From assembly GCA_964347045.1 (NCBI GenBank), contig CAYFXC010000008.1:20373-73757 (forward strand): DNA of 53,385 bases. Reading direction: 5' to 3'. Source of the stretch: an uncultured archaeon. GTDB taxonomy: Archaea > Asgardarchaeota > Hermodarchaeia > Hermodarchaeales > Hermodarchaeaceae. The notes beneath the pieces were generated by a model. It ran no database searches. It saw only the letters and a program-made list of their open reading frames with translations, and was not told the DNA's origin. Of this stretch, positions 38,965-45,409 are shown piece after piece; within the stretch, counting starts at the first letter, position 1, and each line of letters opens with the position of its first letter. Both the position numbers and the translations under genes were made by a program.

Positions 38965-40710
38965 TTGGCTTCGCCACAGATTCCAGCAGGGCTAAGTATC
39001 TCCATTAAGGAACATGAACATACCCGGTTAACAGCTGATAATATAATTACACGGTTTGATCCCCGTGGGCAAGTTATTGTGAAAAATAACTCTCGTAAGT
39101 ATGCTATTTGGGATGCAGAACTAGAACTAAACCGGCAAAACCGAACCACGCTAGGAACCGATACTCTCGATATTGGTCGATTGGATCCAATGACAGAGTG
39201 GGAGAAAGAATTCATTATAAAGGAAATCGAGTCTCCAATGCTTTTGCTTTCCGAGGCATTGGACACGTTTCATGAACGTGTTGGAGTTAATAATGCTCTT
39301 GTTTTCGAATATAAGATGCCGGTAGAAATCAGCCTTAACCTTCGAAATCACTCGGGTGCAACAATCCATGATATCGTTGTTACGAAAGAAATACCGCCAA
39401 TATACAATGATGTGGATATTCAGACATCTCAGTTAGGCAAGGTGAACTATGATTCAAAGGCAGGTCAGATTGTGTGGACAATTAAGGAGCTGCCTTCCGA
39501 ACAAATAGCGATCCAACGTATCCGAGCTACAATTACCGCTGAAGACACAGAACCTAAACCAGGTGGAAAAGTTCAGGCTACTTATCGCTTATCTGATGTA
39601 GTGCGTAGTACTCTTGTCCCCACGCTCCATGCATCAACAGAAACAGAAGTGAGTATCGAAAAAGAAGAGAACCCCATGCGAGCGGGTTCTTGGCGATGTA
39701 AAGCTTCGCTTCAAAATGCGAGTGAATTTCCCCTTCGCCTTGAACGAGTTCAAGTGGTACTAACTGCACCTGAGAACGAGTTACTATATGAGGGAACACC
39801 TAATCTTCGACTTGAGCCAGGAGAAGTATGGGGTCATGAACTAGAAGTGAGTGCGGATCAGCCTGAATTTGATGTTATAGCACTTTCCACAGTTGAAGCA
39901 CCCATTACTCAAGAGATTGTGGGAACCATTGAGAAAGTAGAGACTGTTTTTCCGGTGCTTCGTATTGAAGGAAGCAAGCGTGTCGAACCCCTTGAATTAC
40001 TTGCATGGGAACCCGCTCCAGTAGCTGTGACATTACAGGCAAAGAACACGGGGTCTACTGATTGTGATGATATCACCTTTATTGAACCGCTTCCTCCTGG
40101 TTTTGAGCCACCTGAAACAACGCAAATTCGTGTACGGGTGGGTGATAAACCGATAACCCGAAATGTCAAAGTCGATATCCGACCAAAGGATCGTGATCTG
40201 AAGATTCCTCATAAACTCAGCATTCAGCTTCATGATTTGACTGAAAGTCTTTCTCCAATTAAACCGGGTGATACAGTCACCGCTAATTACATCACCATCG
40301 CAAGGGCTCCTAAACCTAACTATGAACATGCGCTTCCGGTAAAAATCGAAGCTAACACATTTCCTCCTGGACCAAAAGCCACAGCAGAGGTTCCAGAATC
40401 AATGGCACCAGTAATTAAAATTCGATCTGTAGTACGGAAACTCCGAAAAACACGGATGGTGGCACCTACTTCTGAAGCAGGTGAATTACTAGTTACTGTA
40501 ACCTTTGTGAATGAAGGAGAAAGCAGTCTTCATGACCCAGAACTTCAAGACCTAATTCCTCCCAATTTTGAATATGTGGGTGTTCCGCCTGGAACACCGG
40601 AGCCCTCGCTGCGTGACACTATGAACGGTACAGTGGTTATTTGGGCTTTGCCAACGATGATGAGCCGAGAAAGTTTTGTGGGCAGATACAAATACAAACC
40701 CAAAGAGTAA
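38965..40710 (+). CDS. All-beta cytosolic protein with mu-homology (adaptin medium chain)-like/Ig-like domains
   Basis: No signal peptide or TM segment. ISIKEHEH...RGQVIVKN and DIVVTKEIP...GKVNYD....QIVWTIKEL resemble mu-homology subdomains. Confidence 0.55.
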   Translation: MASPQIPAGLSISIKEHEHTRLTADNIITRFDPRGQVIVKNNSRKYAIWDAELELNRQNRTTLGTDTLDIGRLDPMTEWEKEFIIKEIESPMLLLSEALDTFHERVGVNNALVFEYKMPVEISLNLRNHSGATIHDIVVTKEIPPIYNDVDIQTSQLGKVNYDSKAGQIVWTIKELPSEQIAIQRIRATITAEDTEPKPGGKVQATYRLSDVVRSTLVPTLHASTETEVSIEKEENPMRAGSWRCKASLQNASEFPLRLERVQVVLTAPENELLYEGTPNLRLEPGEVWGHELEVSADQPEFDVIALSTVEAPITQEIVGTIEKVETVFPVLRIEGSKRVEPLELLAWEPAPVAVTLQAKNTGSTDCDDITFIEPLPPGFEPPETTQIRVRVGDKPITRNVKVDIRPKDRDLKIPHKLSIQLHDLTESLSPIKPGDTVTANYITIARAPKPNYEHALPVKIEANTFPPGPKATAEVPESMAPVIKIRSVVRKLRKTRMVAPTSEAGELLVTVTFVNEGESSLHDPELQDLIPPNFEYVGVPPGTPEPSLRDTMNGTVVIWALPTMMSRESFVGRYKYKPKE

Positions 40711-41819: not shown

Positions 41820-42371
41820 GTGATGTCTGATTTTAGAGAAGCCCAAATGGATGATGTTTTCCGACAGATGACAGAAATCCTTGAAAGGACGTTAAACCGT
41901 ATTAGTGAAGTTGAGCAGCATATTTCGAAGGACTTGGAGAGCATTCGCCGTCAATTGGACGCTGTTGGAGTTCTTAAGGATAATATCGCCAATCTGAATA
42001 ATCGAATCGATTCGTTAAGCAAGAAACTGACAGAGCTAAGCAAATCGGAACCTCAAGAACTTAATCGCATGATGATGCGATCTATTAGCGAATTAGATAA
42101 GCGCATGCAGATGTTTACTATCACCGAAGTTCTTTCACGTCTTGAAACAGGCCAAGATTTTGCGCCACGCACTATGAGTAGTTCAGCTGTAGCGAAATCA
42201 ACGGAAACAGTGGGAAAAAAAGGAGCCGAGGCAACCGTACCGACCTCTGAACCTGCTCCACCAGCAAAAGCCCAGGTCGATGCAGTTGCCGAAGCTACGG
42301 GATCTGATCAACCGTGGCGTGAAAAGATGCGCGAGAAGTATGGTTTAAAGAAGAAACCTGGAAAAGTGTAG
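41820..42371 (+). CDS. Coiled-coil protein with low-complexity tail
   Basis: ~110 aa heptad region followed by an Ala/Pro/Thr tail. Confidence 0.7.
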   Translation: MMSDFREAQMDDVFRQMTEILERTLNRISEVEQHISKDLESIRRQLDAVGVLKDNIANLNNRIDSLSKKLTELSKSEPQELNRMMMRSISELDKRMQMFTITEVLSRLETGQDFAPRTMSSSAVAKSTETVGKKGAEATVPTSEPAPPAKAQVDAVAEATGSDQPWREKMREKYGLKKKPGKV

Positions 42372-42380
42372 GTCCATCTA

Positions 42381-42827
42381 TTACTTTTGTAGTTCAAGAT
42401 AGCGTCGAATTAAACGCTCCATGCGTAAGCAGTATAATGCATCTTGAGCTGCTTGTAGGGTTTCTGAGAGTAATTCTAATGCTTGAGCGTCCGCGGAGGA
42501 GCTGCGAAGATCACCTAGGGATTCAAAACCTTGCGCGATGGTTGCCGCGAGCTGAGAATAGTGAGTAACGCTACTCCGTCGCTGTTCACGCAAATTGGAT
42601 AAAAGTTCTTGAAATTGTGGTTCAATGGTTTCTAGGCGTGCTTTAACAAGTTGATCGATTTGGTTGATTGTCTCTTTAAGAGTAGAAACATCTTGGGTCA
42701 GGTTAGTTAATTTGGTAAATAGGCTATTGAACGCCTGGGTGACAAAGGGAATCAGAGATTCATCACCAGTGGGAGTGGATTGTTCTGGCGGCGGGGGGGT
42801 TGGAGGAGTAGGTGGTTGTTCAGTCAT
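42381..42827 (-). CDS. Coiled-coil protein with N-terminal polyproline
   Basis: QPPTPPTPPPPEQ followed by heptad repeats; same strand as the actin-like genes. Confidence 0.7.
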   Translation of the reverse strand: MTEQPPTPPTPPPPEQSTPTGDESLIPFVTQAFNSLFTKLTNLTQDVSTLKETINQIDQLVKARLETIEPQFQELLSNLREQRRSSVTHYSQLAATIAQGFESLGDLRSSSADAQALELLSETLQAAQDALYCLRMERLIRRYLELQK

Positions 42828-42841
42828 TTTATTGAACCTCT

Positions 42842-43231
42842 TTATTTGCCTCCTTTCCTAAAAGATTCGAGTTCTTTCACTGTTTGGAGCACCTCATCTA
42901 GATTGATTCGATTTGTTAACTCGTCTACTATTTCAATAATGACACGAATCGCTTCCTCAATATCTTTAAGATTACTGAGTTCCTTTGCTCGGTCCACTTC
43001 AGCTAAAAGTTGGGTTTCGACCAGCTGACGTTGTTCTCGAAAAGTTGAAACATCACGATGAATCTCTTGGGCGGCTAAGTTGGCTTGTTTCGCGGTTTCC
43101 TCCATCTGGGTAGACAAATCTTGTCCAAGCTGCATCATTGCAGTTTGAGTGCCTTTGAGTTGTTCTCCGAGTTCATCAAGACCTTTTTCAATTTTTTTGA
43201 TCGCTTCTTTTACTGTAGCTGCATTTGTCAT
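42842..43231 (-). CDS. Coiled-coil protein
   Basis: Heptad repeats; ATG 43231 with GGGAG SD, 20 nt after the actin-like stop. Confidence 0.7.
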   Translation of the reverse strand: MTNAATVKEAIKKIEKGLDELGEQLKGTQTAMMQLGQDLSTQMEETAKQANLAAQEIHRDVSTFREQRQLVETQLLAEVDRAKELSNLKDIEEAIRVIIEIVDELTNRINLDEVLQTVKELESFRKGGK

Positions 43232-43251
43232 TGTTTCTCCCTGTTCTGATT

Positions 43252-44271
43252 TCATGTTTTTGCGGCGCCAAGCCAACTACTGAAAAGGGGAGATTCAAGG
43301 TCATAAACATTGACCTTAAGATAAGGAATTTGAGTTTGGAGATCGGTTTCAATACGAGTTGTGAGACCAGGAATCATTGAACCTCCACCTGTAATGAGAA
43401 TATTCGAGGCTAATTCGGCCCGTACAGTTGGATCTACATGCATTAATACATCTACAATAGCTTCTGTTAAGCCTTTGTCTCCTACTCCAAGAAGTGTTGG
43501 TTGAAATAATACTTCTGGTGCTTGCCATGGAAGTGGACCAAGGGGGAGCTCGATACCCTCAAACGGAAAATCCACATTATCTTCAAAAACATCATCAACA
43601 GCCATGGGAAAAACTTGGCAATGTGATTGTTTAATTGCCCGAATGGCTTTGGGGCTATTCGCTAGTCGAAAATAGTATGAAGCAAGCTTAGATGAAGCCG
43701 TTTCTGCTTTATGGAGGAGAAGTTTACGTATTTCGGCAGAAACCAAGAAACTCCCAGTAACCAGTGGAAGTATTTGTTCTTCTAATAGAAATCCCCGATA
43801 AATCGGAGTGACGAATGTACTTGTGTATCCGATATCCAAGATTAATGCCGTTTTCCGTCCCCAATAATTGAATGTTTGAACTTGTTGCATTGCTGCTTTG
43901 ACATGTTGGCATTCAAGGACATCTTGTATTTTTTCACATAACGAATTTAAGCGATCTCGTGGGGCTTGGGGAAAAAATAGTAATGTCAATTGAAGTTTTT
44001 CTCGTTGTTCATTCATGATGGGAAAGTTTTCCAAAGCGAGCACACAAAGTTGGGTAATAAGAGATGTATCCTTGGGAAGTATACCATTTTCAAGCGGGAA
44101 TATCCACGTACCTCTACCAGGGTCAAGTTCGAAAAATTTTGAGGTACCACTACCTGGTTTGGGATTCTTGAAAGCAGCAGGTATGATTATGGGTTCCGGT
44201 TGTTGGGGAAACCCACATTTCATGTAGCCACTACCCAGGTCAATGATAAGGTTGGCTTGGGTAACCTTCAC
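43252..44271 (-). CDS. Divergent actin-related protein (Arp-like) 2 of 2
   Basis: IIDLGSGYMKCGF, ILDIGYTSTFVTPIYRG, APEVLFQP, NILITGGGSMIPG and SWLGAA motifs. Confidence 0.9.
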   Translation of the reverse strand: MKVTQANLIIDLGSGYMKCGFPQQPEPIIIPAAFKNPKPGSGTSKFFELDPGRGTWIFPLENGILPKDTSLITQLCVLALENFPIMNEQREKLQLTLLFFPQAPRDRLNSLCEKIQDVLECQHVKAAMQQVQTFNYWGRKTALILDIGYTSTFVTPIYRGFLLEEQILPLVTGSFLVSAEIRKLLLHKAETASSKLASYYFRLANSPKAIRAIKQSHCQVFPMAVDDVFEDNVDFPFEGIELPLGPLPWQAPEVLFQPTLLGVGDKGLTEAIVDVLMHVDPTVRAELASNILITGGGSMIPGLTTRIETDLQTQIPYLKVNVYDLESPLFSSWLGAAKT

Positions 44272-44386
44272 AAATGAAGTTTAGGAAGCATGTTTGAAAA
44301 CAGTTTCGATTTTGATGAAGGAACTACCCTGATTTATGAGAAATAGTAGTATTCGAAGAAATGAATAAGAACGAAATAGTGGGGAG

Positions 44387-45409
44387 TTAGGGTGTTTCTG
44401 GAGGTCTATGCAATGCTGCAGCACCAGACCACGCATTTGTGAGCGCATCTTCGAGGGCATAAACATTTACAGGTAGATGGGGAAAGCGCTGTTTGAGTTC
44501 ATATTCAAATCTCTCTCGAAGACCAAGGAACAAGGAGCCACCACCTGTTAGTACTATATCATTTGATAGATCACGGCGAATTGTCATATCAGTTTGTTCA
44601 AGTGATTCAACCACTGCGTCGATTAGGCCAACATCACCGATACCTATGAGCGAAGGGTCGAAGAGGACTTCGGGAGCTCTCCAAGGCACAGTTCCCAAAG
44701 AGACATTAAGATTCTTGCGGCGGTATTGCCATTCTCTTGGCAGTTTTTTGTCTTTGGGATTGGGTCGAACTTGGCAGAAATTCCGTTTGATGTATTCGAT
44801 AGCTTTGGTATCTGTAGCGATCTTGGCATAATCTGAATAGCGCCTAGAATTTTTTGCCATATCTTCAAATAAACGCCGTAGTGCGGCAGTAACGTAGAGG
44901 CTACCCGTGACCGTGTCGACGACATGTTCTCGAAGTAAAAAGCCTTGGAAAATTGGGGCTATCATTGATATTGTGTGTCCAATATCCACTACTATTCCTG
45001 TGTGCTTGCCAAGAAAAAGAAGAGTGAGAACTTGTTGATAGGCTGCTAGAAGTTTGCGACAACCAAGCTGTATCCTTAATTCATCACACACATCATACAC
45101 TCGGTTTTGTTCAACTGTTGAGAAAACGAGGAGCTGGAGTTCCGTTGCAACTCGTCGATGACCACCTATAGCCATTCGATTAAAGATTTCAAGAATTAAG
45201 GGCTTCAAAACTTCACTATTTGGAAGATTCCCATTTTCAAGTGGAAAGAACTTCCCTATTCGATTCGGATCCAGGGTAAGAAGATACGAATCGCCTTTAG
45301 TTTCACCGTGATTTTTTAAATACGCTGGCATGATTTTGGGTATTGTCTGGTTAGGGTAGCCATACTTGAGAAAACCGGTTCCTAAATCAACAATTAGGGG
45401 ATTTTGCAT
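44387..45409 (-). CDS. Divergent actin-related protein (Arp-like) 1 of 2
   Basis: IVDLGTGFLKYG, VVDIGHTISMIAPIFQG, APEVLFDP, IVLTGGGSLFLGLRERF and AWSGAA motifs. Confidence 0.9.
   Translation of the reverse strand: MQNPLIVDLGTGFLKYGYPNQTIPKIMPAYLKNHGETKGDSYLLTLDPNRIGKFFPLENGNLPNSEVLKPLILEIFNRMAIGGHRRVATELQLLVFSTVEQNRVYDVCDELRIQLGCRKLLAAYQQVLTLLFLGKHTGIVVDIGHTISMIAPIFQGFLLREHVVDTVTGSLYVTAALRRLFEDMAKNSRRYSDYAKIATDTKAIEYIKRNFCQVRPNPKDKKLPREWQYRRKNLNVSLGTVPWRAPEVLFDPSLIGIGDVGLIDAVVESLEQTDMTIRRDLSNDIVLTGGGSLFLGLRERFEYELKQRFPHLPVNVYALEDALTNAWSGAAALHRPPETP

Follow-up and report, generated by a model that had tools for sequence, protein, structure and literature searches.

The window analysed here is a stretch of 53,385 nucleotides (nt) from the genome of an uncultured archaeon of the Hermodarchaeaceae (Asgardarchaeota; contig CAYFXC010000008.1, positions 20,373 to 73,757). 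Between positions 41,820 and 45,409 of this window lie two tandem genes for shortened actin-related proteins (Arps), here called ArpA and ArpB, followed by two co-oriented genes for helical, coiled-coil (CC) proteins, CC1 and CC2, and by a third such gene, CC3, which converges on them. The locus holds members of a new, truncated actin-family clade, encoded ahead of a helical module that is undescribed although widespread in Asgard archaea; it is not a demonstrated complex. A literature search returned no description of the truncated Arp clade or of the helical trio. The features of the locus are as follows, with protein lengths in amino acids (aa).

44387-45409, minus strand: ArpA, short actin-family protein of 340 aa, the slower-evolving paralogue
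43252-44271, minus strand: ArpB, short actin-family protein of 339 aa, directly upstream of CC1 and the positional equivalent of the single Arp of other lineages
43232-43251, minus strand: spacer between ArpB and CC1, 20 nt, with the ribosome-binding-like motif GGGAG
42842-43231, minus strand: CC1, extended-helix protein of 129 aa, its start conserved among orthologues (the listed open reading frame, ORF, continues to 43276)
42828-42841, minus strand: spacer between CC1 and CC2, 14 nt, with the ribosome-binding-like motif AGAGG
42381-42827, minus strand: CC2, 148 aa, with a polyproline head, the motif SLIPFVTQAFN and one long helix
42786-42815, minus strand: polyproline tract of CC2 (residues 5-14, PPTPPTPPPP)
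41820-42371, plus strand: CC3, convergent, 183 aa, with a helical core at about residues 4-110, a non-conserved linker and a conserved C-terminal peptide
42312-42368, plus strand: C-terminal peptide of CC3, PW.EKM.EKYGLK..PG, with invariant W, M, Y and L

ArpB, CC1 and CC2 are packed in an operon-like manner, and the spacers corresponding to those of 20 and 14 nt measure at most 21 nt in most lineages. Only 9 nt lie between the stop codons of CC2 and CC3. On every contig that carries these genes, an Arp immediately precedes CC1-CC2, and CC3 converges on them. One genome of the genus has a further gene in the same orientation between ArpA and ArpB (L043:6695-7561, G105:C3), whose 288-aa product has a CPIC motif at the N-terminus and matches no Pfam family; ArpB, CC1 and CC2 are contiguous there despite it.

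Shortened actin-related proteins of one archaeal class

ArpA and ArpB are confirmed as genuine, shortened actin-related proteins, in agreement with a preliminary description of the locus from its sequence, in which they had been taken for paralogous actin-fold proteins of ~340 aa with nucleotide-binding motifs. Both scored above the cut-off of 27 bits of the Pfam family Actin, PF00022 (117.1 bits for ArpA and 113.9 bits for ArpB), and under that of the Pfam family MreB (16-18 bits). The two proteins are 40% identical (E 8e-87) and share ~27% identity with the lokiactin of their own genome; ArpA orthologues within the genus are 71-86% identical. The fold of ArpA, computed with AlphaFold2 (AF2) from the family alignment, was modelled with a predicted local distance difference test (pLDDT) value of 92 and a predicted template modelling score (pTM) of 0.90, the lowest values being located in the shortened loop of subdomain 2. 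The top Foldseek matches of this model were eukaryotic actins with a template modelling (TM) score of ~0.8.

In a sequence search of the PDB the best solved relatives were Arp1/centractin and actins (E 1e-25 to 1e-18), in alignments ending at about residue 346 of the 375 residues of actin. Arp1 was the top match both for ArpA (92 bits, against 88 and 83) and for ArpB (82 bits, against 81), and Arp2 followed under the scores of Arp1 and actin (77 bits). The best 60 matches comprised eukaryotic actins and Arps and one 'HC1 actin' chain, with no crenactin chain among them. Thus, the short Arps are nearest to eukaryotic-type actins by sequence and fold, which distinguishes them from MreB and ParM; these resemble them in length (~340 aa) and in how short the C-terminus is beyond the helix that returns to domain I.

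The family alignment was composed of ~30 short-Arp members and the canonical actin of the genome (31 sequences). The phosphate-1 loop, DLGxG..K.G, is invariant at G10, G12, K15 and G17 and nearly invariant at D8. Moreover, Q125 (the equivalent of Q137 of actin), D142 and G144 of the phosphate-2 motif DIG (D-x-G), P152, G156, K208, E247, L249, F250 and P252 of PE.LF.P (seen as PEVLF.P), the adenosine-motif glycines G289 and G290 of TGGGS, and W327 of W.GAA are invariant. Family membership, a eukaryotic-type actin fold and these motifs are what the short Arps have in common with lokiactin, eukaryotic actin and the Arps of PF00022. Other positions have changed: the equivalent of H161 of actin is M, F, L or I in all short Arps, D157 and G158 are replaced by H/Y and T, and the segment equivalent to residues 141-150, a wall of the barbed-end groove, has gained in hydrophobic or aromatic character (LLFLG in ArpA, NYWG or WGYWG in the ArpB clade). 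As the D-x-G, the GG and the Q137 equivalent are kept but the H161 equivalent is lost, ATP binding is plausible and actin-like hydrolysis uncertain, judging from the established roles of these residues.

Lokiactin and canonical actin have a full length of ~375-390 aa with a D-loop (DNase I-binding loop) and C-terminal helices. Compared with canonical actin, the short Arps are without 10 and 3 residues of the D-loop region in subdomain 2, 2 residues behind the strand near position 95, 6 residues of subdomain 4 and all sequence beyond W.GAA, i.e. ~28 residues; ArpB ends 2 residues past this motif and ArpA 9. The short subdomain 2 and the stop just after W.GAA, both remarked on before in the two window proteins, recur in all members of the family. 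Because all ~30 members end at an identical point, the truncation is a trait of the family and not the result of a frameshift or of damage. The alignment supports the view that the short Arps have neither the D-loop tip nor the C-terminal segment by which part of the barbed-end groove of actin is built. The term 'non-polymerising', which had been applied to them, can only be an inference; actin homologues of the size of MreB and ParM, which have the same length as the short Arps (~340 aa), polymerise.

The distribution of the short Arps was determined in a scan of 400 genomes of the Asgard phylum. They are limited to a single GTDB family, in which they occur in 18 of 18 genomes and additionally in the genome of the window, and in none of the other Asgard genomes scanned. 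This family makes up an entire GTDB class of 19 genomes, labelled Hermodarchaeia by submitters; outside the class, the best matches of the scan were ordinary actins. A word-indexed search of 5.8 billion proteins yielded ~32 short-Arp clusters in all, with the submitter labels Hermodarchaeota, Thorarchaeota, Hodarchaeota or 'Promethearchaeota', and its remaining matches were either partial or at most 27% identical over most of the query. In the genus of the window, tandem A and B copies were found on one contig wherever the assembly allowed it, while in a few fragmented assemblies A and B were broken up or lay on different contigs. Genomes of the sister genus contain one Arp copy (41-44% identity). 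Single Arps were observed in the lineages L007/L046, L008, L047, L048, L051 and L053, with L008, L051 and L053 being metagenomic contigs. The Arp pair therefore does not hold as the basic unit it was initially taken for, since several lineages of the class have one Arp before the trio.

In phylogenetic trees the short Arps formed one clade with a support of 100/100 and a stem of ~2.1 substitutions per site, apart from the other sampled Asgard ARP clades and from the lokiactins of six Asgard families, that of the same genome included. Of the phylogeny against lokiactins and eukaryotic Arps that had been proposed as a check, the separation from lokiactins was thereby obtained; the tree, built from Asgard sequences, resolved no sister group of the clade. 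The single Arps of L051, L053 and P0025 grouped with ArpB (support 95/83 in the first tree and 90/78 in the second), and those of the sister genus grouped with ArpA in the second tree only (93/84). These groupings could mean an old duplication with reciprocal losses afterwards, or they could reflect a misplaced root. Complex histories of gain, loss and duplication have already been described for Asgard ARPs (PMC9834061), and a class-specific ARP is for this reason unsurprising in itself. Apart from the short Arps, the window's genome (2.58 Mb, 89% complete) has a single canonical actin (447 bits) and, where a contig ends, a fragment of an actin; it furthermore encodes two two-domain gelsolins.

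A helical trio across Asgard archaea

The two co-oriented helical genes, one of them polyproline-headed, and the convergent third gene are present as preliminarily described, and alignments of orthologues identify CC1, CC2 and CC3 as conserved protein-coding genes. Heptad-compatible helical cores extend over about residues 1-121 of CC1, 25-144 of CC2 and 4-110 of CC3. The conserved core of CC1 reads STFREQRQLVETQ...RAKELSNLKDIE, and conserved in CC2 are SLIPFVTQAFN, REQRRSSVTHYSQLAAT and LYCLR.ER.IRR. CC2 was modelled by AF2 as a single helix of ~123 residues (25-147) with a low pTM, a value that would be typical of a subunit needing partners. The polyproline head of CC2 occurs in the genus of the window only and is absent in the sister genus and in other families. 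With regard to a possible profilin partner for this head, the sole profilin-like ORF of the genome (L104, G000:C1:139201-139476) reached 24.2 bits, compared with a Pfam cut-off of 25.

In CC3 the core is followed by a linker of ~50 residues without conservation and by the C-terminal peptide, in which the columns W166, E168, M170, K173, Y174, G175, L176, K177, P180 and G181 are invariant. Its amphipathic W-x3-M-x3-Y stretch is present only in the Arp-bearing class and absent from the CC3-like tails of other families. The CC3-like tails of several families (in L095, L096, L097 and L101) end with L-[IVL]-[KR]-P-S-[DT]-[LF]-F, followed in two families by a terminal G/R-R-G-Y, and this ending looks like a short linear motif for a common partner; the long CC2-like protein of L101 ends with KKLFGRY.

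Word-indexed profile searches with CC1 and CC3 gave matches in the same class only. When the CC2 profile was searched exhaustively against 1.84 billion representatives, two weak matches of the right length were obtained, P0177 and P0179, which share the N-terminal motif of CC2 (hhalign probability 96.6%, E 6e-10). Their contigs carry a helical gene of ~150 aa, then the CC2-like gene and, converging on it, a gene whose product of ~200 aa combines a helical core with a charged linker and a short motif at the C-terminus; upstream lies a protein of ~230 aa of no known family, and there is no actin gene there. A first mixed profile detected the CC2 family in 54 of the 400 Asgard genomes, a broader one in 186 of the 400, distributed over 11 of 33 families. 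Under their working numbers, these include f13 (5/5 genomes), f14 (6/6), f15 (3/3), f19 (13/14), f26 (3/3), f27 (4/4) and f20, the largest Asgard family, with 128 of 135 genomes; the broader query had no match in f2-f12, f21-f25 and f28-f33. In view of the count in f20, the module should exist in cultured relatives. The CC2-like genes of f20 are almost always two tandem ORFs of ~140 aa about 60 nt apart (e.g. G206:C7:233457-234300).

The arrangement of a CC1-like gene, a CC2-like gene and a converging CC3-like gene without an Arp was observed in contexts of f13, f14, f26 and f27, where the CC2-like gene of f27 is a profile match with no ORF with a usual start codon listed, and in variant form in f15 and f17. 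When alignments were compared with alignments across families, CC1 was matched with a probability of 93% (hhalign, E 3e-7, 115 columns) and CC3, more weakly but in the same position and orientation, with one of 62% (E 7.5e-5), which supports homology across families for CC1 and, less strongly, for CC3; no significance was reached when CC1 and CC3 were each compared with a single sequence of another family. The trio is the older of the two parts of the locus. It is found in many Asgard families that have no short Arp, so it does not depend on the Arp.

Profiles restricted to the class revealed no similarity among CC1, CC2 and CC3, a result that was reversed by the broader profiles: CC1-like and CC2-like proteins matched over 124 columns (hhalign probability 96.4%, E 1.2e-9) and CC3-like proteins matched CC2-like ones in part (84%), in comparisons between coiled-coil profiles, in which heptad periodicity can inflate the scores. 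The three are probably distant paralogues, as expected for a heteromeric rod.

Known families were likewise compared with the helical proteins. No known family recurred in a Pfam scan of 14 CC2-like proteins, and WH2, HSA, dynamitin and p24 were not found in a Pfam scan of CC1 to CC3 at E up to 0.1. A BLOC-1/BORC identity, an idea that arose from three coiled-coil proteins of ~130-150 aa, a weak BLOC1_2 match and a seemingly roadblock-like neighbour, was rejected: the BLOC1_2 match of the window's protein reached 16.8 bits against a cut-off of 33.4 and did not recur among the 14 CC2-like proteins. A SNARE/syntaxin identity was also discarded, with sub-threshold Syntaxin matches in 3 of these 14 proteins (best E 2.6e-4). 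The best value of an ESM Atlas look-up of CC2, 0.87, belonged to unrelated bacterial clusters and was under the meaningful level.

A proposed bound subunit of the trio and its alternatives

Crenactin and arcadins 1-4 constitute the Arcade cluster of Thermoproteales, and arcadin-2 consists of a core, a non-conserved linker and a conserved Trp-containing C-terminal peptide that binds the groove of crenactin (PMC5173319). This cluster is the best precedent for a system such as the present one, as an analogue and not as a homologue. In both, an actin homologue of archaea has small lineage-specific proteins encoded beside it, and the layout of CC3 is like that of arcadin-2. However, the likeness of CC3 is one of layout alone, the helical proteins have no sequence relation to the arcadins, the actin is here a truncated one of the eukaryote/lokiactin type, and the trio predates the Arp and occurs without it.

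The reading that is tentatively preferred, with a likelihood a little below even, is that the locus joins an old Asgard helical module with a class-restricted short Arp as its bound nucleotide-binding subunit. It is based on the contiguity of Arp and trio in all contigs, on the 20- and 14-nt spacers, on the conservation of the trio as a unit in the differing neighbourhoods of other families, and on CC3, which has the arcadin-2 layout and carries the W-M-Y helix only in the Arp-bearing class. According to this reading, the distantly paralogous, rod-like proteins CC1, CC2 and CC3 would probably assemble as a heteromeric coiled-coil scaffold, with CC3 presenting a short peptide on a flexible linker. 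The short Arp would be a fast-evolving, class-restricted offshoot of the actin family, duplicated in some lineages, that kept the actin fold and the ATP-binding loops but no longer has either half of the longitudinal contact of canonical F-actin, namely the D-loop tip and the C-terminal helices walling the barbed-end groove. It would most likely share a transcript with CC1 and CC2, act as a nucleotide-binding subunit on the helical scaffold and not form a canonical actin filament; it could be bound along a long helix, or the amphipathic W-M-Y tail of CC3 could insert into the remaining groove, as arcadin-2 does on crenactin. As a hypothesis, the physical interaction of the Arp with the trio is credible without quite reaching an even chance. 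A complex prediction for CC1, CC2 and CC3 with ArpB, run without controls, gave a score of 0.00 compared with a mark of 0.32 and speaks neither for nor against it.

Several observations weigh against this reading. The trio is present without a short Arp in at least ten other Asgard families. ArpA is separated from ArpB by the 288-aa gene in one genome, and in the sister genus the spacer between Arp and CC1 measures 109-279 nt, which leaves room for a separate promoter. Furthermore, the linkage of Arp and trio was indeed conserved in every relative examined, as had been asked of it at the outset, yet a neighbourhood of at least 13 genes is syntenic across the class, comprising an aminopeptidase, a tRNA synthetase, RsmB, NIF3, the Arp, the trio, a queuosine-salvage-like gene, a 581-aa beta-rich protein, PCC and PolB. 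Because the entire neighbourhood is syntenic, linkage is weak evidence of partnership, and the adjacency may simply be inherited. In its GLK..PG..L part, the CC3 tail is similar to those of families without the Arp, and it may for that reason serve another partner, e.g. canonical actin. The distant paralogy of the helical proteins is, additionally, read from scores that are open to inflation by heptad periodicity.

On the strength of the kept gene order, of the trio present elsewhere without an Arp and of the larger spacers in the sister genus, the short Arp and the trio could be functionally unrelated neighbours whose adjacency is inherited synteny in one small class. This explanation is rather unlikely, if by no means negligible: it has to be reconciled with spacers of 20 and 14 nt that contain ribosome-binding-like motifs, with an Arp that is never parted from the trio on any contig, and with the position of the Arp in the slot just upstream of CC1, which in other families (f13 and f14) is held by a different lineage-specific gene.

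A self-polymerising minimal actin, with filaments of MreB- or ParM-size subunits that are homopolymers where the Arp is single-copy and perhaps co-polymers where there are two, is an improbable alternative. The helical proteins would in this case be regulators or anchors, comparable to the arcadins for crenactin or ParR for ParM. A length of ~340 aa, that of polymerising bacterial actin homologues, fits this explanation, as do the preserved ATP-binding motifs and the arcadin-2-like layout of CC3 (PMC5173319), which would suit a polymerisation regulator; single-copy lineages fall on both sides of the A/B split in the second tree, which would be expected if either copy works alone. On the other hand, the D-loop tip and the C-terminal groove wall of the longitudinal contacts of F-actin and crenactin type are missing, and the H161 equivalent is lost.

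An Arp2/3-like or dynactin-like machine, in which an ArpA-ArpB heterodimer templates or caps canonical actin filaments and the coiled coils organise it, is very unlikely, and the analogy drawn in the preliminary description found no support: Arp1 is the top PDB match of both proteins, the genome has canonical actin, a profilin-like ORF and gelsolins and CC2 has its polyproline head, but the lead of Arp1 over actin is just a few bits, several lineages have one Arp only and so lack the obligate pair that characterises Arp2-Arp3, ARPC4 (PF05856, the only ARPC family searched) was not found in this 89% complete genome, control genomes being negative as well, no match to dynamitin, p24 or HSA was obtained in Pfam for the helical proteins, the polyproline head is genus-specific, and the barbed-end groove for templating a daughter filament is incomplete.

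A looser comparison can be made with modules in which Arps sit on helices, i.e. actin/Arp4 or Arp7/Arp9 on the HSA helix and the Arp1 filament of dynactin with its p50/p24 shoulder. These likewise have divergent Arps beside long helical proteins, and Arp1 is the best PDB match; with no HSA, dynamitin or p24 Pfam match and with an Arp pair that is not universal, the comparison is one of analogy only.

The reading of the short Arp as a bound subunit can be extended further. The trio might be a heterotrimeric rod that has so far gone unrecognised and serves as a core structural element in many lineages of Asgard archaea, among them the family to which most sequenced Lokiarchaeia-type genomes belong, and in Hermodarchaeia a stripped-down actin might have become its dedicated ATP-binding subunit, docking by its exposed aromatic barbed-end groove on the W-M-Y tail of CC3 or on a long helix. 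The assembly would then be a forerunner-like analogue of Arp-on-helix assemblies such as HSA modules and the dynactin shoulder. Such an extension is bold and, on present evidence, unlikely to hold in full.

The locus is a worthwhile experimental lead. The short Arp is a naturally minimised eukaryotic-type actin, from which it can be learned what actin can do without and what follows when both longitudinal contact elements are removed. The helical trio is an uncharacterised three-gene module in about half of the sampled Asgard genomes, the largest family included, and may be testable in cultured strains. If the Arp binds the trio, it would be the second archaeal actin homologue with dedicated partners after crenactin and its arcadins; if it does not, the short Arp would be one more lineage-specific Asgard ARP.

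Neighbouring genes of the locus and of the trio

The 581-aa beta-rich protein that adjoins the locus throughout the class is encoded at positions 38965-40710 of the window (plus strand). It contains a DUF11/CLIPPER repeat (41.5 bits) and gave a sub-threshold match to the adaptor mu-homology domain (27.4 bits, compared with a cut-off of 31.6).

A conserved protein of 222-234 aa that belongs to no known family is encoded ahead of the trio in two other Asgard families (L061:4678-5382, L095:9218-9907, L097:6801-7469). No Roadblock match was found for it in Pfam, and the apparent likeness of its N-terminus is an impression only; the upstream protein of ~230 aa of f14, used as a single query, was not found in the genome of the window.

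In f15 the CC1-like/CC2-like pair adjoins an unassigned 169-171-aa gene, a helical protein of 262-267 aa and a protein of 618-624 aa (L098:8276-11671, L102:4265-7594). The last of these has in L098 a GTPase domain of the Arf/Ras type (Arf 70 bits), a context which could suggest that the helical module is connected with small-GTPase systems. Finally, one f17 genome carries two copies of the helical cluster with differing gene orders within 4 kb (L101, G127:C5:131000-135500), and a divergent actin-family gene of 570 aa (G127:C5:148334-149449) is located ~14 kb from these clusters.

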